From a virus: a stretch of DNA of 27,542 nt. The position numbers and the translations under genes are program-made. This document shows positions 1,774-14,440 of the stretch, piece by piece (the first letter of the stretch is position 1; every line of letters starts with the position of its first letter). The stretch is from UHGV virus genome UHGV-0088497; one strand, 5' to 3'. Under the pieces are notes generated by a model that saw nothing but the letters and a program-made list of their open reading frames with translations, was not told the DNA's origin and made no database searches.

Positions 1774-2259
1774 GTGGCTAGTGAAAAAAAATTAAAAATT
1801 CCATTCGATACCAACAAAAACTATTACAGTGGAATTCGTGGTGTTTTGAGCGGTATTGTTTGCTCTATGATCGGTGTTTATATTACCGGGCTATTTAGCG
1901 GAGCTATTAGTGTTGCTCAGATTTTTGAAATGCCAATAGTTATCATCAGTGCTTGGGTCGCTTTGTGTGCTTCTTTGTGGGCGATATCATATAAATTTGA
2001 AGATAGGGTTATATGCACATTTGGTCGTAATTGGGATTGTCCTAGAACAGCGAACTTTTTTTTATTTTTGCTTTACATAATGATAGGTGTCTTTTGTTCA
2101 CTTATATTCGAGGCCTTTCTGAAGGGGGGGGCCTCCCGCTCCTTATATGTTTCAATGGCGGGCTTTTTAGTTTTCTTACGACTTTTTTGTTTCTTCAGCA
2201 TTAAGAACTATGCTCAAATACAAAGCAAATCTGTTGATGAAACTAACCATGAAAAGTAA
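1774..2259 (+). CDS. AT-rich polytopic membrane protein (about 4 predicted TM helices), accessory gene beside the immunity region
   Basis: 161-aa ORF with GTG start at 1774 preceded by AAGG (1763-1766); four hydrophobic stretches; sequence visibly more AT-rich than flanking phage genes; contains a G8 tract (2124-2131) and a T8 tract (2056-2063). Confidence 0.6.
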   Translation: MASEKKLKIPFDTNKNYYSGIRGVLSGIVCSMIGVYITGLFSGAISVAQIFEMPIVIISAWVALCASLWAISYKFEDRVICTFGRNWDCPRTANFFLFLLYIMIGVFCSLIFEAFLKGGASRSLYVSMAGFLVFLRLFCFFSIKNYAQIQSKSVDETNHEK

Positions 2260-2483: not shown

Positions 2484-3110
2484 TTAAAGTTCGTACTGAA
2501 CGCCTTTGACAACTCCGATAATCAGGCAATTACCGTTTATTGAAATGTTTGGATAGCGTGGATTCAAGGGAACTAAGAACTTTTGAGGCCCATCGATGAC
2601 GAGTTTTTTTACAGTAGCCTCGCTTGTCCCATCAAGCCTGGCTACGACTATCTTTCCATTAAATGGCTCTGCATCAGGATCTACTATGACCGTTGCCCCT
2701 TCTGGGATTGTGGGGAGCCCATTAGGGTTTGTCATCGAATCACCTTTGACCTCCAATGCAAAGGAGCTATCACCTATCCTGAGTGATGTTTCTACCCACT
2801 TATCTACTTCACTGAAAACTTCTGCTGCTTTACATTCTGTAAACTGTCCAGCCTGAACCCAAGATATCACCGGAATCCTTCGCATCTTGGTTATCAGATT
2901 CCCTTCGAATTCAGTGCCATAAAGTATGTAATCAATTGATGTGTTGAAATACTTTGCAAGTTTCGCAAGTGACTCACCGCCTGGCACATTAATGTCTTTT
3001 TCCCAATACCCAACCGCCACATCGCTAACACCACAGAACTTACCCAGTTCTTTCTGCGAGGTTTTAGTTATGCGCCTGAGAGCTTTGATGCGCTGACCGA
3101 CAGTTTCCAT
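2484..3110 (-). CDS. cI: CI-like prophage repressor (N-terminal HTH_XRE, C-terminal S24/LexA-like autopeptidase)
   Basis: HTH segment QKELGKFCGVSDVAVGYWE; S24 hallmark GDSM (Ser) with downstream Lys (KKLV). ATG at 3110 gives METVGQRIKAL; the ORF-track start at 3143 is TTG and unlikely. Divergent from the cro-like gene. Confidence 0.85.
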   Translation of the reverse strand: METVGQRIKALRRITKTSQKELGKFCGVSDVAVGYWEKDINVPGGESLAKLAKYFNTSIDYILYGTEFEGNLITKMRRIPVISWVQAGQFTECKAAEVFSEVDKWVETSLRIGDSSFALEVKGDSMTNPNGLPTIPEGATVIVDPDAEPFNGKIVVARLDGTSEATVKKLVIDGPQKFLVPLNPRYPNISINGNCLIIGVVKGVQYEL

Positions 3111-3133
3111 TTGAACACCATAAAAAATTAAAA

Positions 3134-3205
3134 GGCTAAGCAATCTTAGTTTTTATTGACCAAAGTTAGATTGGTTATTAATATCTAATCAAACTTAGCT
3201 AAGGG
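3134..3205. promoter_or_regulatory. OR-like operator/promoter region between divergent cI and cro (PR candidate -35 TTGACC 3156-3161, -10 TAATAT 3179-3184)
   Basis: Palindromic sites CTAAGCAATCTTAG (3136-3149), CTAATCAAACTTAG (3185-3198) and CTTAGCTAAG (3194-3203); sigma70-like hexamers with 17-bp spacing for the rightward promoter. Confidence 0.6.
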
Positions 3206-4001: not shown

Positions 4002-4149
4002 TCCGCATGAGCAGTTTAACGGCTTTTAACCGTCTACCGCAACTCAGGATAATCCCGGTTTCGGGTACTCCGTTGTTTCGGTATGAACGCAGATTATCAA
4101 CCCGCTGGGTTCCGTGTAACCACAGTAGGGCGGTTTCAATTGTGGGGGT

Positions 4150-4344
4150 CTACAACCGGAGGGCAAAACGCCTGTGCGCGAACTTAACCGAAGGTTCAAA
4201 GACCACCGTGGAGTGCCAGTCCGTGTTATCCGCTGGGAGCCAGAAACACAGCGCGTTATCTATCTGCGTGATGGCTACCCGCACGAATGCTTCAGCCCAC
4301 TTGAGCATTTCAGGCAAAAATTCAGGGAGATAACGGACGATCAT
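4150..4344 (-). CDS. hypothetical small protein (about 65 aa) antisense in the cII-like to replication-gene gap
   Basis: Minus-strand ORF with more typical codon choice than the competing plus-strand ORF 3950-4333, which is rich in AGG/AGA/CGG/CTA codons. Weak call; the region may be non-coding. Confidence 0.2.
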   Translation of the reverse strand: MIVRYLPEFLPEMLKWAEAFVRVAITQIDNALCFWLPADNTDWHSTVVFEPSVKFAHRRFALRL

Positions 4345-5209
4345 GAGCACTAAATTAACCGGCTACGTATGGGATGGTTGCGCGGCGTCGGGCATGAAGT
4401 TGTCTAGTGTCGCGATCATGGCTCGACTCGCTGATTTCAGCAGTGATGAGGGCGTATGCTGGCCGTCAATTGAAACTATTGCTCGCCAGCTTGGCGCAGG
4501 CCCGAGCACTATCAGAACGGCAATCGCAAAGCTTGAAAAAGATGGCTGGCTCACGCGTACACAGCGCCGTAATGGTAACCGTAATGCTTCGAACGTGTAC
4601 CGCCTGAATGTGGCGAAACTTCAGGCTGCCGCATTTTCTCAACTGTCAGATTCTGACACATCAAAATCTGACGCATCAAAATTTGACACCTCAAAAACTG
4701 ACCCGTCGAAATCCGGCAAAAACGGCGGTTTTGACCCGTCAGAATCTGGCGGGGATCCGTCAGTAAAATCAAAACAAGATCCACAAGTAACTTTAAAACC
4801 CTCTTGTCCGGTTGCGGCGCAACCCGACCCTGAGGTTGTGATTACTGATCAGGCCAGACAGGTTTTGTCTTACCTGAACCAGACAACTGGTTCACGCTAC
4901 CAGGTATGCAGCACGTCGCTGGAGAACATTCGCGCCCGTCTGCGGGAACAGTTCACTGTTGATGATCTGTGCCTTGTGGTGGATTACAAAAACGCTGATT
5001 GGCGTGATAGCGAGCAGGCTCAATACCTCCGCCCGGCAACTCTGTTTATTCCAAAAAACTTCCCCGGTTACCTGCAAAGCGCGACCAAATGGTCTGCCGC
5101 TGGGCGACCTGAACGCGTTAACGGTAAATGGGCGACTAACTCAGCCAGCCGCGCAAACTTCCAAAATGTTGACTATTCACTGCCAGAAAATTCGGGGTTC
5201 CGCTCTTGA
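4343..5209 (+). CDS. replication initiation protein (N-terminal wHTH, conserved phage C-terminal domain; functional analogue of lambda O)
   Basis: 288-aa ORF after the cII-like gene; N-terminal HTH (PSIETIARQLGAGPSTIRTAIAKLEKDGWL); internal iteron repeats within the linker coding sequence, as in lambda O. Confidence 0.75.
   Translation: MSTKLTGYVWDGCAASGMKLSSVAIMARLADFSSDEGVCWPSIETIARQLGAGPSTIRTAIAKLEKDGWLTRTQRRNGNRNASNVYRLNVAKLQAAAFSQLSDSDTSKSDASKFDTSKTDPSKSGKNGGFDPSESGGDPSVKSKQDPQVTLKPSCPVAAQPDPEVVITDQARQVLSYLNQTTGSRYQVCSTSLENIRARLREQFTVDDLCLVVDYKNADWRDSEQAQYLRPATLFIPKNFPGYLQSATKWSAAGRPERVNGKWATNSASRANFQNVDYSLPENSGFRS
4643..4775 (+). repeat. iteron array (ori-like): about six degenerate copies of CTGACNCATCAAAAT at ~15-bp period, followed by an AT-rich stretch
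   Basis: Read directly: ctgacacatcaaaat / ctgacgcatcaaaat / ttgacacctcaaaaa / ctgacccgtcgaaat / ttgacccgtcagaat / ccgtcagtaaaatcaaaa; encodes the repetitive SDSDTSKSDASKFDTSKTDPSKS peptide. Confidence 0.6.
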
Positions 5210-8600: not shown

Positions 8601-8617
8601 GTGTATGGAGAAAAGTG

Positions 8618-8983
8618 ATGCGTGATATTCAAATGTTACTTGAAAGATGGGGCGGGTGGGCTGCCAGTGATAGTTCTGGCGTGGACTATTCTCCTATAGC
8701 TGCAGGATTTAAGGGGCTGTTGCCGCAAACAGGTAGATCCCGACCGTCATGTACTGACGATGATGCGCTGATCATCGAAGGTTGCCTGGCGCGATTGAAA
8801 AGCCGGAAACCATATGAGCATTCACTGCTTGTAGCTCACTATCTGTATGGAATATCCAAGAGGAAGATCGCAAAAGTGCGTAAAAAAGATGAGAAATTGA
8901 TACGGATCGAGATACAGATGGCTGAGGGGTTTATTGATGGCTGCCTTTCAATGTTGGATGTAAGGCTTGATATGGATGAATAA
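8618..8983 (+). CDS. late-gene antitermination protein Q (Phage_antitermQ family)
   Basis: N-terminal RDIQMLLERWGGWAA and central AAGFKGLL...DDDALIIEGCLARLK...LLVAHYLYGISKRKIAK resemble Q-like antiterminators of Salmonella/E. coli lambdoid prophages; GGAG upstream. Confidence 0.7.
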   Translation: MRDIQMLLERWGGWAASDSSGVDYSPIAAGFKGLLPQTGRSRPSCTDDDALIIEGCLARLKSRKPYEHSLLVAHYLYGISKRKIAKVRKKDEKLIRIEIQMAEGFIDGCLSMLDVRLDMDE

Positions 8984-8989
8984 CTAATT

Positions 8990-9023
8990 GTTAACATTAT
9001 GCCCCGTGTAGGGGCCTAATGTT
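8990..9023. terminator. long imperfect hairpin (AACATTATGCCCC-GTGTA-GGGGCCTAATGTT) between convergent Q and the minus-strand cassette; tR'-like or bidirectional terminator candidate
   Basis: Inverted repeat read directly; no strong T-run, so function is uncertain. Confidence 0.35.
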
Positions 9024-9471
9024 ACAAGTGAGGGAAAATTCTACGCAGCACTAACCAACACCTACCAAATGTGCAAAGTGAAAGGAGCAGCGAAGACAAT
9101 CCTAACAGGAGAAATAAAAAATCAATTGGTTGAGCAAAGACCTTAACATCCTCTGGTAAGAACATAGCGATCAGTGGAAACAAGCAGGCCAAAATCAGCG
9201 TCAACCCTGTTGATAGCAAGCGATTTATCAATGTTGGTAATATATTATTCCTTTTGAGGGCGTTAATGGCCCCATCTTTGTCACTATCTGCGCTACTGAA
9301 TATAGATATAGCGGCGAGAACAAACCCAAAAAGAATTCCTGAAATTGTCGAAAGCACACCTGCTGTAGTTAACACATCAGCATGTTTCATAGGCTTAAAC
9401 AGTTTTGTCGCTGCATAAGTAATCAGAACTAAGAGGACCACTTTCCAAAAAAGAGTTAGAAATTCTCTCAT
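9022..9471 (-). CDS. small 4-TM inner-membrane protein (149 aa), second gene of two-gene accessory cassette (RexB-like architecture)
   Basis: Four hydrophobic helices; strong SD (AAGGGAGGA) upstream of ATG 9471, 18 nt after the stop of the upstream gene; AT-rich sequence. Confidence 0.65.
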   Translation of the reverse strand: MREFLTLFWKVVLLVLITYAATKLFKPMKHADVLTTAGVLSTISGILFGFVLAAISIFSSADSDKDGAINALKRNNILPTLINRLLSTGLTLILACLFPLIAMFLPEDVKVFAQPIDFLFLLLGLSSLLLSLCTFGRCWLVLRRIFPHL

Positions 9472-9489
9472 TTTGTCCTCCCTTTTGCG

Positions 9490-10437
9490 TTACTGGTTTT
9501 TTTTTGCAAGCTCATACTGTGCAAGGTAATTTGCATTATCAATTTTAGCAGATATCATCGCCGTCCTGATATCAGAATCAGAAGGATAGCCGCTTTTTAC
9601 TACTATAGTTTTCGAGCCTATGAGCACTTGATCAAGTAGGCTTTTTGGCGCTGTATCTGATGGTTCTGTTACATCAATTTTCTTGATGTTTAGCCCGCCA
9701 GAGCCTTTGGGGAATAGTTCAAGCAGTTCTTTAATAGCATCAGTAACTGATGATTTAAGATAGTTGAAGCCTGCTCTTTTGGGACGAATGCGACCGCGCA
9801 TGTTAAGTCTCAGGTGTGAACCGCCCATACCAACCACCATATCAATGATGTCATTAGTAAGGTCATTCTTAATCTGATAATTAGCTTTATTGAAATTTCT
9901 TGGCGCTGCGACAGTGAGGTCAAAACTGCGAAGGATGTTCCCATCTTCAAGAAGTTCCTTCATGCTCTCGTGCTTCCAGATAGCCTCGAATGTAACATTT
10001 TTCATTTGTGTCTTGTTGTACAGAATGAAAGATAAATCATTCACTTTGGGGCCTAAATGGTTGAGAGTCATTGCTAGTAAATCTGTTTCAAAGTAGTAAA
10101 TAAAATATGTCCGTTCTACTACTGAATCTTTATCGCTAAGCGGTATCGTTCGCTCGCTTCCTGTGGTGCCATCCTCGATAAAAGGTAAGAGACAATCACG
10201 CCTCCACGAGACATACCCAAAATAACTCTGCTGCTTATCATCCTTTTCAAGAATGACAAGTTTTAAACCGCGGTTTTGGGTTTCTGCTGTCACCACTAAA
10301 GGGAATGTAACCGGAGTCGTGTTTGTCATTTGCTCGAATGCAAGTTTCGCTGTAGACAGACCGTCTTTTTTACTTCCATTTCCAGTGAAAAAGCCAACTC
10401 TTACGCGACGAGTTTTCTTCTTATCTTCTGTAGTCAT
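9490..10437 (-). CDS. soluble 315-aa protein of unknown function, first gene of two-gene accessory cassette (RexA-like position)
   Basis: Long AT-rich ORF with no catalytic motif I recognise. ORF-track start at 10443 is TTG; ATG at 10437 is more likely. Confidence 0.65.
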   Translation of the reverse strand: MTTEDKKKTRRVRVGFFTGNGSKKDGLSTAKLAFEQMTNTTPVTFPLVVTAETQNRGLKLVILEKDDKQQSYFGYVSWRRDCLLPFIEDGTTGSERTIPLSDKDSVVERTYFIYYFETDLLAMTLNHLGPKVNDLSFILYNKTQMKNVTFEAIWKHESMKELLEDGNILRSFDLTVAAPRNFNKANYQIKNDLTNDIIDMVVGMGGSHLRLNMRGRIRPKRAGFNYLKSSVTDAIKELLELFPKGSGGLNIKKIDVTEPSDTAPKSLLDQVLIGSKTIVVKSGYPSDSDIRTAMISAKIDNANYLAQYELAKKNQ

Positions 10438-10675
10438 TATCAATCCGATGAGAATTTCTGATAAACGGACGAAAAATACTATAAATAATTGAGAAGATCA
10501 TTAGCGCGGTCCGCAAAAAGTGATGTAACGTGTTAAGAGTGGTTACTTGGTCACATTGCTTAATCATCAAATTCAGCTTCTGAGTTTTGTTTTAACGATG
10601 CTTGATTGTGCGACTTATCTCTCTGAAACTTATCTTCTTTTCCTTGACTATGAATTTTCTATCTAAGGAGGTTCT

Positions 10676-10924
10676 ATGTTGGGAGTGTGTTCTTGTGGTG
10701 GTAGGCTTGATGAGTCGCAGTATTCCACCGATAGCCTAGGTAATACGTTCAAATCTTGTCCAAGATGTACGCAGATTTCCGGGCATCACGTTTTCTATCT
10801 TATTGAGGAGTTTGGCGAGAGGGATATGGGGGATGGCAGAGTTATAGTGCAACCATATTGCCCATCGTGCAGAAACTACCAAGAAAGATCATTAGTTCCT
10901 GCGTTTGAGTGCAGTGGTTCATGA
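10676..10924 (+). CDS. Cys-rich zinc-ribbon protein (CSCGG...CPRC...CPSC), 82 aa
   Basis: ORF with strong SD (AAGGAGG, 10663-10669) and a canonical intrinsic terminator immediately downstream. Confidence 0.6.
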   Translation: MLGVCSCGGRLDESQYSTDSLGNTFKSCPRCTQISGHHVFYLIEEFGERDMGDGRVIVQPYCPSCRNYQERSLVPAFECSGS

Positions 10925-10942
10925 TCACAACATTCAATATAA

Positions 10943-10966
10943 GACCACCTTCGGGTGGTTTTTTTA
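10943..10966 (+). terminator. Rho-independent terminator (ACCACC-TTCG-GGTGGT followed by T6)
   Basis: Perfect 6-bp GC-rich stem with tetraloop at 10944-10959 and a T-run at 10960-10965. Confidence 0.8.
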
Positions 10967-11088
10967 TGACAAATCAGACATGCGCGGCGCGTAAAGGCGC
11001 TGGTGGTCGCAGAATGGAATTCTTCTCTTGCTGGTGAAGCCAACCAGAGTTATCTGTATGTCACTCTAATTGTTTAAGGGTAAAAGGC

Positions 11089-11280
11089 ATGCTAAATCAG
11101 CAAGATATGACAGAAACCGCGAAGGCTGTTTTCAATGAGTTAAGCGATAAACCAGCATCGGTTGGGGAGATTGCACAGAATACCCACCTCAGCCGCGAAC
11201 GTTGCCAACTCATACTTACGCAATTGGTGATGGCGGGATTATCTGACTACCAGTTCGGATGTTATAAGCGTTTCCAGTGA
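11089..11280 (+). CDS. small hypothetical protein (63 aa), possibly DNA-binding
   Basis: ORF in track with AAAAGG upstream; short helix-rich sequence; no firm motif. Confidence 0.4.
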   Translation: MLNQQDMTETAKAVFNELSDKPASVGEIAQNTHLSRERCQLILTQLVMAGLSDYQFGCYKRFQ

Positions 11281-11410
11281 TATGTTTTTTTGCACTATGT
11301 GAACTGCATCAACAGTTTAGTTTTTTCTTATTTCTGGCTTAAAAATAGTTTTTGACATAACTCTTTAGCTATTAAGATTTTTTACCTTATCAACTTGATA
11401 GAGGTGAAAA

Positions 11411-11743
11411 ATGAGTGTTGAAAATTATGAAATTGCTTTAAATGATGTTGACCCAACTAACCTGGGTGCGGTTAAAGACTTATTGGAGACACACTCCCAT
11501 CTTTTCAATGACTATTTTCTAGCCGGTTATGGCGGTGATGCCCGATACTCCGTTATTGATGGCTCATTTGAAGTTATCGGTATTGGAGATGGTTTTTTTG
11601 AGTATGAGGTTGGGATTGATTTTTTTGCTGGTTGCTCAGATATGAACGATACCCACGAAGACTCTGGGATACTTGAATATGAAGTTAGAGATGGAAGTAT
11701 TCACATTGAAGTGGATGAAGCTGTCTGGAGAGTAGACAATTAA
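11411..11743 (+). CDS. strongly acidic small protein (110 aa)
   Basis: SD GAGGTG upstream of ATG 11411; many D/E and few K/R (large net negative charge); immediately upstream of a DNA methyltransferase gene. Confidence 0.55.
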   Translation: MSVENYEIALNDVDPTNLGAVKDLLETHSHLFNDYFLAGYGGDARYSVIDGSFEVIGIGDGFFEYEVGIDFFAGCSDMNDTHEDSGILEYEVRDGSIHIEVDEAVWRVDN

Positions 11744-11933
11744 TTCCCGCTTACTGATCCTAATCGCGCCGCTATAAATGGTTTGGCGGCTTTCTGCTGT
11801 GGAAATGGGCGGCTGGTGGGTGTTAGCGCACCCAGTCAGCCATCAGCTCATGCTTTCAGGTCACAAGCTAACCAAGGCCCACTGCTTTAGCGCAAAAGCA
11901 ACGTGAGCCTATCAGAGTTACGCTTACTGATCT

Positions 11934-12986
11934 ATGAAAAATACTGTAAAAATAAACAGGGTTGAGTTAATCAACGCTGATAGCCTGCATTACGTCGCCA
12001 CCCTCCCGGATAACTCTATTGATCTGATTGTTACGGATCCTCCGTACTTCAAAGTGAAGCCTAACGGCTGGGACAACCAATGGAAGGGGGACGAGGACTA
12101 CTTACGCTGGCTTGATAGCTGCCTGGCTGAGTATGCTCGCGTTCTTAAACCTGCTGGCAGCATCTACCTGTTTTGCGGTCACCGACTGGCCTCAGACATA
12201 GAGATTATGATGCGTACCCGGTTCAAAGTTTTGAATCACATCATTTGGGCAAAACCATCGGGCCGCTGGAATGGATGTAACAAAGAAAGCCTGCGTGCGT
12301 ACTTTCCATCTACGGAACGGATTTTGTTTGCTGAGCACTATCTTGGGCCGTACACAGGTAAAGAGGATGTTTACGAAAGGAAAAGCACAGAGCTAAAGCA
12401 GCACATTATGACGCCGCTGATTGATTACTTCCGTAATGCCCGTGAATCACTGGGAGTCAGCTCGAAAGAAATAGCTGAGGCAACCGGAAAGAAAAACATG
12501 GCGTCACACTGGTTTGGTGCAAGCCAATGGCAACTACCAAATGAAGTGGACTATAGAAAATTGCAGGAACTGTTCACGCGGATCGCTATCGATAAGCACA
12601 TTCAGCAGAAGCTTGAACATCCTCACCACCAGCTGGTAGCCACCTATCAGTCATTAAACCGCAAGTATTCAGAATTGCTGGAGGAATACAAAACCCTCCG
12701 GCGCTGCTTCTCTGTTTCCGCTTTTGTTCCGTATACCGACGTATGGACGCATAAGCCTGTTCAGTTTTATCCAGGCAAACATCCATGCGAAAAACCTGCC
12801 GACATGCTGAAGCAGATCATTAGCGCCAGCAGCAGACCGGGGGATATCGTTGCCGATTTCTTTATGGGCTCTGGTTCAACTGTGAAAGCTGCAATAGAAC
12901 TTGGTCGTCGGGCGATCGGCGTAGAACTGGAAACCGACAGGTTTATTCAGACCACCGAAGAGGTGGAAAAACTCAACAAAACATAA
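11934..12986 (+). CDS. beta-class DNA methyltransferase (motif IV DPPY before motif I FxGxG), N6-adenine or N4-cytosine specific, no adjacent restriction gene seen
   Basis: VTDPPYF near the N-terminus and DFFMGSGST near the C-terminus give the beta-class motif order. Confidence 0.8.
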   Translation: MKNTVKINRVELINADSLHYVATLPDNSIDLIVTDPPYFKVKPNGWDNQWKGDEDYLRWLDSCLAEYARVLKPAGSIYLFCGHRLASDIEIMMRTRFKVLNHIIWAKPSGRWNGCNKESLRAYFPSTERILFAEHYLGPYTGKEDVYERKSTELKQHIMTPLIDYFRNARESLGVSSKEIAEATGKKNMASHWFGASQWQLPNEVDYRKLQELFTRIAIDKHIQQKLEHPHHQLVATYQSLNRKYSELLEEYKTLRRCFSVSAFVPYTDVWTHKPVQFYPGKHPCEKPADMLKQIISASSRPGDIVADFFMGSGSTVKAAIELGRRAIGVELETDRFIQTTEEVEKLNKT

Positions 12987-13129
12987 CGATCATCACGCTC
13001 CCTGTTGCTGTGGTGATCACCATTTTCAGGCACCGGGAATCATCCTTACTTTTAGTTGAACAAAAGAGCCCGGTTGCCTGATCCCCTCCAATCACACACA
13101 GCGCCATCCGAAAAATCGGAGGTGAGGCT

Positions 13130-13408
13130 ATGACCAGAATGAGCACCATTTACAGCAGACTTTCATATGGATCAGGAACCACGCTTGCCGGCTGCGGTGT
13201 ATCAGCGAAGGCATATGCCGAAACAGCCAAAACAGCAAAAGAGGTGTCCTGGATGTTGGCCGACAGAATTGCAGGGTTAAGCCTGAGCGACTGGGCAATT
13301 ATTGTCGGTATCGCATGCACAGTTATCACCTGTGCAGTGAACTGGTATTTCCGCTGGAAAGAACGGGAGGATCGGCGCAATGGCTATGCCACCAAAGCTG
13401 AAGAATAA
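13130..13408 (+). CDS. class II holin (pinholin, phage-21 S21-like) with dual-start motif (M-T-R-M)
   Basis: C-terminal TM2 and basic tail (WAIIVGIACTVITCAVNWYFRWKEREDRR) resemble S21; Gly/Ala-rich weakly hydrophobic TM1; GGAGG 7 nt upstream of ATG 13130 and a second ATG at 13139. Confidence 0.75.
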   Translation: MTRMSTIYSRLSYGSGTTLAGCGVSAKAYAETAKTAKEVSWMLADRIAGLSLSDWAIIVGIACTVITCAVNWYFRWKEREDRRNGYATKAEE

Positions 13409-13928
13409 ACTGAGCGCAGCGGTCGTTGGTTTGATTCTTGCGGGGGCTTCCGCGCCCGTGATTCTCGATCAGTTTCTGGATGAGAAAGAGGGTAACAGCC
13501 TGACAGCATATCGCGACGGCGGCGGAATCTGGACTATTTGCCGTGGCGCCACGATGGTTGATGGTAAGCCAGTCGTTCAGGGGATGAAACTGACGCAAGC
13601 TAAGTGTGAACAGGTCAATGCCATTGAGCGTAACAAGGCGCTGGCGTGGGTTGAGCGAAATATCAGGGTACCGCTGAGCGAACCACAGAAAGCCGGGATC
13701 GCATCTTTCTGCCCATATAACATAGGCCCCGGAAAATGTTTCCCGTCCACGTTCTATAAGCGAATGAACGCCGGCGACACAAAAGGCGCGTGTGAAGCTA
13801 TTCGCTGGTGGATTAAAGACGGTGGCCGCGATTGTCGCCTGACCAAAGGCCAGAAAAATGGCTGTTATGGGCAGGTAGAACGACGAGATCAGGAAAGCGC
13901 GCTGACGTGCTGGGGGATAGACCAGTGA
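13386..13928 (+). CDS. SAR endolysin (GH24/T4-type lysozyme with N-terminal signal-anchor-release domain, R21-like)
   Basis: N-terminus [27 protein letters not shown] (SAR-like); catalytic region [22 protein letters not shown] (E...D...T spacing of T4-lysozyme type); follows a pinholin. Confidence 0.8.
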
Positions 13929-14440
13929 GCCTGCGCTATCAGTTCATTGCTATTTCGGTGCTGGTGGCCGTCGCATTTATCGCCGGAAACGAGTGGAGTA
14001 ACCGCGGTTGGGAAAAAAAGTGGGCGGAACGTGACAGCGCGAAATCCTCGCAAACAGCGAACGCGCAGACCGCCGCCCGCATGATTGAACAAGGGCGAAT
14101 TATTGCCCGTGATGAGGCTGTAAAAGATGCACAAGCACAAGCCGCTAAATCTGCTGCGAATGCTGCTGGCCTGTCTGCCACTGTTAGCCAGCTGCGCACC
14201 GAAGCAACAAAGTTTGCCGCCCGCCTGGACGCCGCAAAGCACACCTCAGATCTTGCCGCTGCCGTCAGAAGCAAAACAGCCGGAGCCGACGCCAGAATGC
14301 TCGCCGACATGCTCGGAAGTATTGCAGAAGAAGCTCGATATTATGCTGAGCGATCTGACGAAAGCTACCGGGCTGGAATGACATGTGAGCGTGTTTACGA
14401 CTCGGTGAGACATTCGAATAACAACAGGGTTACACGATGA
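13925..14440 (+). CDS. i-spanin Rz
   Basis: GTG at 13925 overlaps the endolysin stop; N-terminal TM helix ([15 protein letters not shown]) then Ala/Gln-rich coiled-coil-like periplasmic domain. The ORF-track start at 13832 would overlap the endolysin by ~100 nt. Confidence 0.7.
14127..14381 (+). CDS. o-spanin Rz1 lipoprotein, embedded in Rz in the +1 frame
   Basis: Lipoprotein signal with lipobox LASC ([23 protein letters not shown]) followed by a Pro-rich mature region; fully inside the Rz coding region. Alternative start at ATG 14160. Confidence 0.7.

Follow-up and report, generated by a model that had tools for sequence, protein, structure and literature searches.

A late promoter most likely displaced beyond antisense cargo in the Q-to-holin gap of a lambdoid prophage

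Where does late transcription begin when kilobases of cargo, part of it antisense, separate the gene for the Q antiterminator from the lysis genes? The question is raised by UHGV virus genome UHGV-0088497, a stretch of 27,542 nucleotides (the window, hereafter) that is a lambdoid prophage with a cI-like repressor, cro/cII-like and replication genes, RusA, Ant and a DUF968/HNH protein. Q ends at 8983 and the holin starts at 13130, and the 4146 bp between them (8984-13129) hold, in order, a hairpin, two antisense genes and a strong terminator among four plus-strand genes. A preliminary description of this DNA had put the cargo at about 4.1 kb and had located the hairpin, the antisense two-gene cassette and the strong terminator where we find them; missing from its itemisation were the plus-strand genes between cassette and holin, namely open reading frames (ORFs) of 82, 63 and 110 residues and a methyltransferase. 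It also assumed that the Q-dependent late promoter PR' and the qut site directly follow Q. Comparison with related loci points elsewhere; we consider it likely that the gap consists of two compartments and that the late promoter, lying beyond the cassette, is what divides them.

The probable late promoter module

A conserved module occupies 10506-10594, just beyond the antisense cassette. Its parts, together with Q and the hairpin behind it, are the following.

8615-8983, plus strand: Q antiterminator of the Q21 family, QuuD-like, 122 residues (PF06530, E 1.7e-53, full length)
8988-9027, no strand assigned: hairpin between the convergent Q and rexB-like genes, from RNA folding
10506-10514, plus strand: palindrome GCGGTCCGC, candidate Q-binding element, in the -35/spacer region of PR'
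10526-10531, plus strand: putative -10 hexamer of PR', TAACGT (TAnnnT)
10532-10563, plus strand: conserved start-site and initial transcribed block, GTTAAGAGTGGTTACTT ggtCACAttgCTTAA, presumed to hold a sigma-dependent pause element
10570-10594, plus strand: weak terminator at the tR' position, a six-pair stem followed by TTTGTTTTA (-3.0 kcal/mol)

The 17-nt block GTTAAGAGTGGTTACTT has a single copy in the window, at 10532, where 0.04 would be expected by chance at up to three mismatches, and was searched for in 80 loci encoding Q homologues, one genome per species. It matches only on the Q strand and downstream of Q, stray matches with three to four mismatches being set aside; those in L032, L043 and L049 show no TAnnnT, lie far from Q and were judged to be chance. 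The layout is canonical at 14 loci, with the block starting 64-177 bp after the Q stop, and displaced by 0.6-2.9 kb at 16 (the window, L002, DLP12, Stx2a_1447 and twelve others). In the window the distance is 1549 bp; in other words, this locus departs from the Q21 module, in which the promoter is found immediately downstream of Q. At all 16 displaced loci the block lies beyond the cargo, still accompanied by its -10 and palindrome, and the module retains promoter-like elements of its own.

Several relatives make the displacement easy to see. Locus L002, from E. coli strain WY517-2, shares Q and the antisense pair with the window (about 75% identity in DNA) and has its holin 300 bp further on; aligning this 300-bp stretch to the window reveals a non-coding block conserved above gene level. 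DLP12 (qsr' of E. coli K-12; quuD-nmpC-essD) and phage PA-2 (lc porin) share with the window the Q family and antisense cargo between Q and the lysis genes; in DLP12 an identical GTTAAGAGTGGTTACTT stands beyond nmpC, the antisense porin gene, beginning 175 bp ahead of essD, and a terminator comes next, so that the whole block sits beyond the cargo and just upstream of the holin, as a unit. DLP12 differs from the window in its porin cargo (interrupted by IS5 in K-12), in having no genes between PR' and holin and in its palindrome, which is of class TTTACGTACGTAAA. According to a passage of PMC7918800 that cites Rueggeberg 2013, the DLP12 lysis operon is Q-controlled. The block is also identical in the Stx2a phage Stx2a_1447 (AP012536), whose order is Q (53% identical), two antisense genes, block plus terminator, a small winged-helix ORF of 65 residues and a methylase. 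Like the window, this and similar Stx phages carry a methyltransferase with the same leader and then late cargo; unlike the window, Stx2a_1447 has three tRNAs and stx2AB after the methylase and is without the 82- and 110-residue genes. A literature search for the block sequence found no relevant paper. For the Stx phages of Sakai, PR' is mapped in the StxS paper.

What, then, lies directly behind Q? The Q protein is 51% identical to DLP12 QuuD and matches the solved Q21 structures 6P18/6JNX at E 2.2e-5, as a distant relative of Q21; its family, PF06530, is placed in the Q21/Q933W family by the Q21 structure preprint. From its stop codon to that of the convergent gene there are 38 bp, and these are occupied by the hairpin, which folds on either strand (-20.2 kcal/mol for 8984-9030, plus strand; -19.3 kcal/mol for 8971-9030, minus strand) and is followed by no U-run on the plus strand. 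In L002 a hairpin stands at the corresponding place, with another sequence, and we regard the structure in the window as probably a terminator for the cassette plus an insulator or buffer between convergent genes. Because the displaced module keeps its own -10 and upstream elements, and because the hairpin fills the 38 bp after Q, the Q-dependent PR' most likely lies at about 10506-10563, downstream of the cassette, and not at 8984. A promoter left next to Q would be parted from its Q site.

Thirty loci anchored on the block provide the anatomy of the module. TAnnnT stands directly 5' of the block in 30/30, its inner bases varying; upstream of this hexamer come the palindrome and then an A-tract, and downstream of the block comes CACA...CTTAA. 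In about 24 of the 30 a GC-rich hairpin follows the block, with a T-run starting 34-62 nt past the motif. For the QuuD class, the left arm of the palindrome, TTTACG, lies at 16-bp spacing to the hexamer and is a plausible -35. Like the Q21 module, these loci thus combine a cognate promoter with a nearby terminator that would give a short leader RNA, the window having terminators at 10570-10594 and 10943-10966. An Rfam search of the PR' leader returned no family.

This layout parallels the PR' regions of phage 21 and lambda. The curated record for phage 21 lists a -35 of TTGACA, a Q-binding element in the spacer, a -10, a transcription start site and a pause element TAAGCTG at +2, with a terminator that ends about 50 nt from the start site; PR' of lambda reads TTGACT, 17 bp, TAAATT, 6 nt and AACGAT-GGG. 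The AAGAGT-GGT of the window resembles both the lambda AACGAT-GGG and the phage 21 TAAGCT, but it starts only 3 nt after the -10. Phage 21 is like the window in its Q family and in the general logic of the promoter, with a Q site in the spacer (a candidate one in the window), a -10-like element (in the window a possible one) close to the start and a terminator no more than about 50 nt away; it is unlike the window in that Q21 has 162 residues and is distant (E 2e-5), the Q-binding element is a direct repeat (ATTGAGCA/AATGAGCA) and PR'21 directly follows Q. The PR' of phage 82, with its extended -10-like element at about +9-14 and GCC at +15-17 (PMC5001585), was tried as a template and rejected; Q82 is of a different family and the features of its promoter do not fit the block.

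How might Q recognize such a promoter? A direct-repeat Q-binding element (TGAGCA twice) between -35 and -10 is absent from the window, which has the inverted repeat GCGGTCCGC instead. Counted from the start site predicted from the -10, the palindrome begins at -35 to -31 in 29/30 loci, a position that corresponds to the Q-binding elements of lambda and phage 21 (for the latter, the curated element). There are five classes of palindrome, and they pair with five classes of Q helix-turn-helix, again in 29/30 loci; the exception, L006, has a degenerate left arm although its Q is of the first class.

Palindrome GCGGTCCGC with helix-turn-helix class KKDEKLIRIEIQMAEGF
Palindrome TTTACGTACGTAAA (at one locus TTTACGATCGTAAA) with class CSDGxIGKxLQKAEG
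Palindrome GCGTACGC with class CSDGTIRKELQTALGF
Palindrome TTCGTTACGAA with class CSEGKIRQKLMIAETF
Palindrome TGCGTTACGCA with class LSEGMIRIKFQMAEGF

This pairing fits a co-evolving specificity, and the five palindromes and five recognition helices are a ready basis for specificity swaps.

With PR' lying beyond the cassette, Q-modified transcription therefore most likely starts after the cassette, without crossing it or the hairpin. In a lysogen, PR' transcripts would stop at the weak or the strong terminator; after induction, Q would load at PR' and the modified polymerase would read through all three terminators (10570-10594, 10943-10966 and 11768-11795) into the methyltransferase and lysis genes, never entering the cassette. 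Compartment 1 (8984-10505), between Q and its target promoter, would then be an autonomous antisense RexAB-like pair with a hairpin on the Q side, and compartment 2 (10595-13129) a late-operon leader comprising the 82-residue gene, the strong terminator, the 63-residue gene, the 110-residue moron, the third terminator, a conserved leader and the methyltransferase. Two statements of the preliminary description change as a result. It had the modified polymerase crossing the hairpin, the cassette and the strong terminator; the last of these, at 10943-10966, does stand in its path, and the other two most likely lie behind PR'. It further took the cassette to be shut off by late transcription, a proposal left with no basis, as late transcription most likely does not cross the cassette. 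A separate late promoter directly upstream of the holin, which it named as the observation that would overturn its model, is not literally what we find; the promoter is 2.6 kb upstream of the holin.

The antisense cassette and its slot

What kind of genes occupy the space between Q and PR'? The two cassette genes, the region from which they may be expressed and the repressor gene with which they are to be compared are listed here.

9022-9471, minus strand: RexB-like membrane protein, 149 residues, with four long helices in an AlphaFold model
9490-10443, minus strand: RexA-like protein of the DUF6731 family, 317 residues; likely ATG start at 10437
10444-10505, minus strand: divergent control region, where the cassette promoter is expected; possible -10 TATAGT at minus-strand 10483-10478
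2484-3143, minus strand: cI-like repressor gene

Neither Pfam nor PADLOC matches the 317-residue protein itself. A protein of Citrobacter freundii is 100% identical to it, and DUF6731 (PF20505), a family mentioned by no paper in the library searched, is present in its homologues. Its AlphaFold model (pLDDT 78, pTM 0.75) has no significant Foldseek match in the PDB, and a profile search of PDB sequences found nothing. The next Foldseek matches of the model are IML3, CENP-N/CHL4, RdgC, Cas2 and 3OH8, the same structural relatives that the RexA structure paper gives for RexA itself (PMC11077077), and the model shows the split globular plus dimerisation domain, RdgC-like, that characterizes the RexA fold. 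Narrow DUF6731 profiles aligned to RexA with hhalign gave nothing significant (probability 0.4-1.7%); a broad profile, built from 50 sequences out of an exhaustive search that found 172 clusters, is collinear with the RexA family profile over 221 columns (E 3e-4, probability 40%).

The partner shows a similar pattern. The model of the 149-residue protein (pLDDT 82) has helices at 2-24, 30-60, 77-104 and 116-145, and a four-helix partner gene lies downstream of the DUF6731 gene in every locus where one was called; in lambda, the 435-nt rexB gene comes directly after rexA. The window thus shows the arrangement of RexAB systems, a rexA-like gene with an adjacent downstream partner of four transmembrane helices and about 144 residues, here 149. 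The best match of this protein in BFVD is a 165-residue protein of mycobacteriophage Sbash (E 0.034), whose identity as gp31 is unconfirmed; Sbash gp30/gp31 is a characterised Rex-like system (PMC6426596). Lambda RexAB and the RexAB-type systems of P. putida prophage P1, Sbash (gp30/31) and Gordonia phage CarolAnn resemble the cassette in being prophage-encoded and in pairing a cytoplasmic RexA-fold protein of about 280-370 residues with a protein of four transmembrane helices and about 145-165 residues that comes after it. The cassette is unlike them in its DUF6731 family, in being known here from its genes alone and in its place: it is not beside cI and co-transcribed, but 6 kb from the cI-like gene, in the Q-to-PR' slot and convergent with Q.

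The cassette can therefore be called RexAB-like in predicted fold and architecture, outside the Pfam RexA and RexB families, and by analogy with lambda a function may be proposed. The pair would be expressed from its own promoter in the lysogen; on infection, the DUF6731 protein would sense the incoming phage and open its four-helix membrane partner, with depolarisation and an aborted infection as the outcome, and the lysogen would be expected to show an exclusion phenotype. The control region, 10444-10505, that would hold this promoter is not conserved in L002.

Several results count against the Rex kinship. Among 25 homologues, none matched Pfam RexA (PF15969) or DUF4747 at E up to 5, so that the likeness to RexA is a structural one with a marginal profile signal, the 40% given above; Pfam RexB (PF15968) was matched by 1/29 homologues, at a non-significant E of 0.03, hhalign gave a probability of 0.2%, and the likeness of the partner to RexB is one of size, topology and gene order. 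Might the cassette then be something other than Rex-type, i.e. an RdgC/RexA-fold DNA-binding modulator of the switch with a membrane anchor, an injection-blocking pair or a toxin-antitoxin-like module? Marginal or absent sequence similarity to RexA and RexB would suit such a reading, as would the lack of any PADLOC match to the cassette beyond E 0.003, and a statement in PMC11077077 has RexA acting on the lambda switch independently of RexB. Set against the shared structural relatives, the four-helix partner and the gene order, we think this reading unlikely, if the strongest of the alternatives. Known defence systems were considered for the cassette and rejected, as PADLOC and Pfam gave no match to them; Kiwa (KwaA, a membrane protein, with KwaB, DUF4868) was matched neither by its models nor by its fold.

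The pair is not confined to the window. In Yersinia, Cronobacter and Xenorhabdus, and on metagenomic contigs, DUF6731 pairs again face a PF06530 Q gene in convergent orientation, and cassette-like DNA is present in 90/5426 complete E. coli genomes. It is one of many occupants of the slot, as the cargo varies by locus and much of it is of defence type: an SRA-domain protein matching methyl-directed restriction enzymes (type IV restriction-like), an HNH-type nuclease (PDC-M68A/SAVED-HNH models), a TIR-like protein, an NYN-domain protein, an RNase A-type CdiA toxin with CdiI immunity protein, a KAP NTPase (PDC-S20, E down to 1e-175), a metallo-beta-lactamase fold protein, the NmpC porin and several proteins without a match. 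At all 16 displaced loci the main ORFs of the Q-to-PR' gap are antisense, the sole sense ORF of at least 70 residues being one of 72 residues in DLP12, and this uniform orientation suggests selection against sense insertions. The defence hotspots of P2-like phages and P4-like satellites, as far as a passage of Rousset et al. 2022 (PMC9122126) describes them, are similar in offering a fixed intergenic slot with interchangeable cargo that includes defence-type genes; the slot of the window differs from them in belonging to another phage group, in parting a regulator from its cis target and in having its main cargo antisense in every locus examined.

Two other slots were noted in passing. In Stx2a_1447, a clinically relevant phage, the Q-to-PR' slot (L084 1884-3447) holds an antisense pair whose proteins, of 343 and 179 residues, match nothing in Pfam or PADLOC and are not similar in sequence to the pair of the window. 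In a Cronobacter dublinensis prophage that carries the DUF6731 gene (L087), a HicA/HicB pair (4568-4744 and 4110-4517, on the late strand) lies between that gene and the holin, presumably in the compartment equivalent to that of stx.

Weighing the readings

Taken together, these observations invite a bolder reading, in which the Q-to-PR' junction of the Q21 family is a dedicated antisense-only hotspot with much defence-type cargo, the DUF6731 and four-helix pair, one of its commonest occupants, is an unrecognised RexAB-type abortive-infection family and the palindrome is a new inverted-repeat Q-binding element that co-evolves with the Q recognition helix. We hold this combination tentatively, giving it somewhat less chance of standing whole than of failing in one of its parts.

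The placement of PR' beyond the cassette also has points that weigh against it. We found no mapped transcript 5' end for this promoter class in the literature consulted. TTAGCG, spaced 19 bp, makes a poor -35 for the window's class; at the tR' position the window has a weak terminator (-3.0 kcal/mol) and about 24/30 relatives a strong one; and the best -10-like repeat, AAGAGT then GGT, comes only 3 nt after the -10, as against 6-7 nt in lambda and phage 21, so near that the predicted start site falls inside the repeat. The correlation of palindrome with Q could reflect linkage alone, i.e. the shared descent of Q and PR'. Additionally, early-operon transcription that runs past Q could, if antiterminated, proceed antisense into the cassette.

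Could the block instead be a lysis-operon promoter that is mainly host-controlled (for example by sigma-E or stress) or otherwise independent of Q, with the palindrome as the operator of another regulator? The poor -35 and the inverted repeat, unlike the direct-repeat Q-binding element of phage 21, would both be in keeping with this, and PMC7918800 reports that the lysis operon of DLP12 responds not only to Q but also to RpoE and Hha. The block nonetheless accompanies Q genes from one genus to another, always on their strand and always downstream of them, the terminator after it makes sense only with antitermination, and the class of palindrome tracks the Q recognition helix; a Q-independent promoter is in our judgement quite improbable. 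To the model of the preliminary description, in which PR' and qut stand right after Q, as PR' does in lambda (about 50 bp from the Q stop) and phage 21, and read-through of hairpin, antisense cassette and terminator silences the cassette, we give hardly any credence, in view of the hairpin-filled 38 bp, the single copy of the block at 10532 with none next to Q and the 16 loci at which block, -10 and palindrome have moved as one.

The placement of PR' beyond the cassette has practical consequences. Forecasts of the expression of late-region cargo, including the toxin genes of Stx phages with this type of Q, hinge on the true position of PR'; genes upstream of it would be lysogen-expressed and Q-independent, and genes downstream of it induction-dependent. 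The slot, flanked by a PF06530 Q and the GTTAAGAGTGGTTACTT block, can serve as a genomic anchor in the search for defence genes, and the RexA link supplies a working hypothesis for the hypothetical DUF6731 pair of those 90 E. coli genomes and several other Enterobacterales. DLP12, PA-2 and some Stx phages already have this layout, though it has gone unremarked; the apparent novelty lies in giving PR' an explicit position, in the slot between Q and PR' with its antisense-only cargo, in the pairing of palindrome with Q and in the RexA link for DUF6731.

The late-operon leader and minor observations

Downstream of PR' the cargo is in the sense orientation, and it is here that the comparison with stx holds. 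The preliminary description likened the whole gap to the site of the toxin genes in Stx phages; the gap does hold accessory cargo and is a recurrent site for it, while the equivalence with the stx position applies to the sense genes at 10676-12986 and does not extend to the antisense cassette at 9022-10443, which most likely is upstream of PR'.

10676-10924, plus strand: 82-residue Cys-rich (zinc-ribbon-like) ORF, first gene after PR' (phrog_7682, E 3.8e-20, function unknown)
10943-10966, plus strand: strong intrinsic terminator, GACCACC/GGTGGTT stem, TTCG loop and seven T
11089-11280, plus strand: 63-residue winged-helix ORF (DprA_WH, E 8e-5; phrog_331)
11282-11783, plus strand: moron-like insertion with a 110-residue ORF at 11411-11743 (phrog_13663) and an AT-rich upstream region (G+C 37-39%)
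11768-11795, plus strand: third terminator-like hairpin, GCCGC...GCGGC then TTTCT, kept in 9 loci
11800-11933, plus strand: conserved structured non-coding leader of the methyltransferase gene, about 135 nt, with a Chi octamer at 11812-11819
11934-12986, plus strand: N6/N4 DNA methyltransferase (PF01555, E 3.5e-44; PADLOC MTase_II, E 4.6e-142)
13130-14440, plus strand: lysis genes, i.e. holin (PF16080/PF04971), lysozyme (PF00959) and Rz-like gene

The boundaries of these units are mosaic, and pairwise blastn against a prophage of E. coli Nissle 1917, which has a different Q (229 residues) and a protease gene as cargo, marks them out. The Nissle prophage matches the window at 10929-11281 (86%; terminator plus 63-residue gene) and at 11784-14422 (92%; methylase leader to lysis genes), the lysis genes themselves being 92% identical at the DNA level. 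Because these matches flank 11282-11783 on both sides without containing it, this segment is a moron added at one junction (L001 position 4324) of an otherwise 86-92% identical region. A moron, in the sense of Hendrix and Juhala, is a self-contained gene that has entered between two genes which in relatives are neighbours, and the 110-residue unit has the marks of one: a precise junction, deviant composition, a hairpin plus T-run after it and, presumably, its own promoter. A 12-nt direct repeat, CGCTTACTGATC, is present at 11747-11758, just after the 110-residue ORF, and at 11919-11930, 3 nt before the methylase ATG, the first copy being inside the segment missing from the Nissle prophage.

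The DNA of the 82-residue ORF matched none of the related loci compared. The strong terminator that comes after this ORF, 350 bp past the weak one at the tR' position, folds at -13.8 kcal/mol (10930-10975), and the 63-residue ORF beyond it is 86% identical in DNA to the Nissle prophage and 74% to Stx2a_1447. Given the weakness of the first terminator, the 82-residue ORF could be transcribed from PR' in a lysogen. The third hairpin shows changes on both sides of three pairs among its 9 loci, and Q-modified polymerase would have to pass it along with the other two.

At least seven other loci (L010, L011, L044, L048, L051, L056 and L084) also have the methyltransferase after the PR' block; it is often the first large gene of the operon and a regular member of this late-operon leader, not a local insertion. 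Its own leader, aligned with flanks over 198 columns in 9 loci, has a mean column identity of 82% with long invariant runs, the coding DNA of the region being 72-92% identical to the window. At -51.6 kcal/mol its consensus fold is a stable one, but few pairs covary, and an Rfam search of this leader returned no family. Phage records that contain the leader number 58, among them those of Stx2a and Stx2c phages, cdtI, mEp460 and phiP27. The methyltransferase ATG, just 3' of the outer stem of the leader, has no obvious Shine-Dalgarno sequence.

A composition scan gives a G+C content of 37-45% across 8750-11750 and 52-55% on both sides. An ORF for a multi-pass membrane protein of 161 residues (1774-2259, plus strand), convergent with the cI-like repressor gene, lies in another island of low G+C (36-40%, 1500-2500), in the region where lambda carries rexAB, and looks accessory. 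Finally, the Chi octamer GCTGGTGG has 14 copies in the 27.5 kb (11 on the plus strand), for example at 10999-11006 and 11812-11819, as against 0.9 expected; Chi-rich lambdoid phages are reportedly the subject of a 2025 paper in Genome Research. The copy within the methylase leader is invariant.

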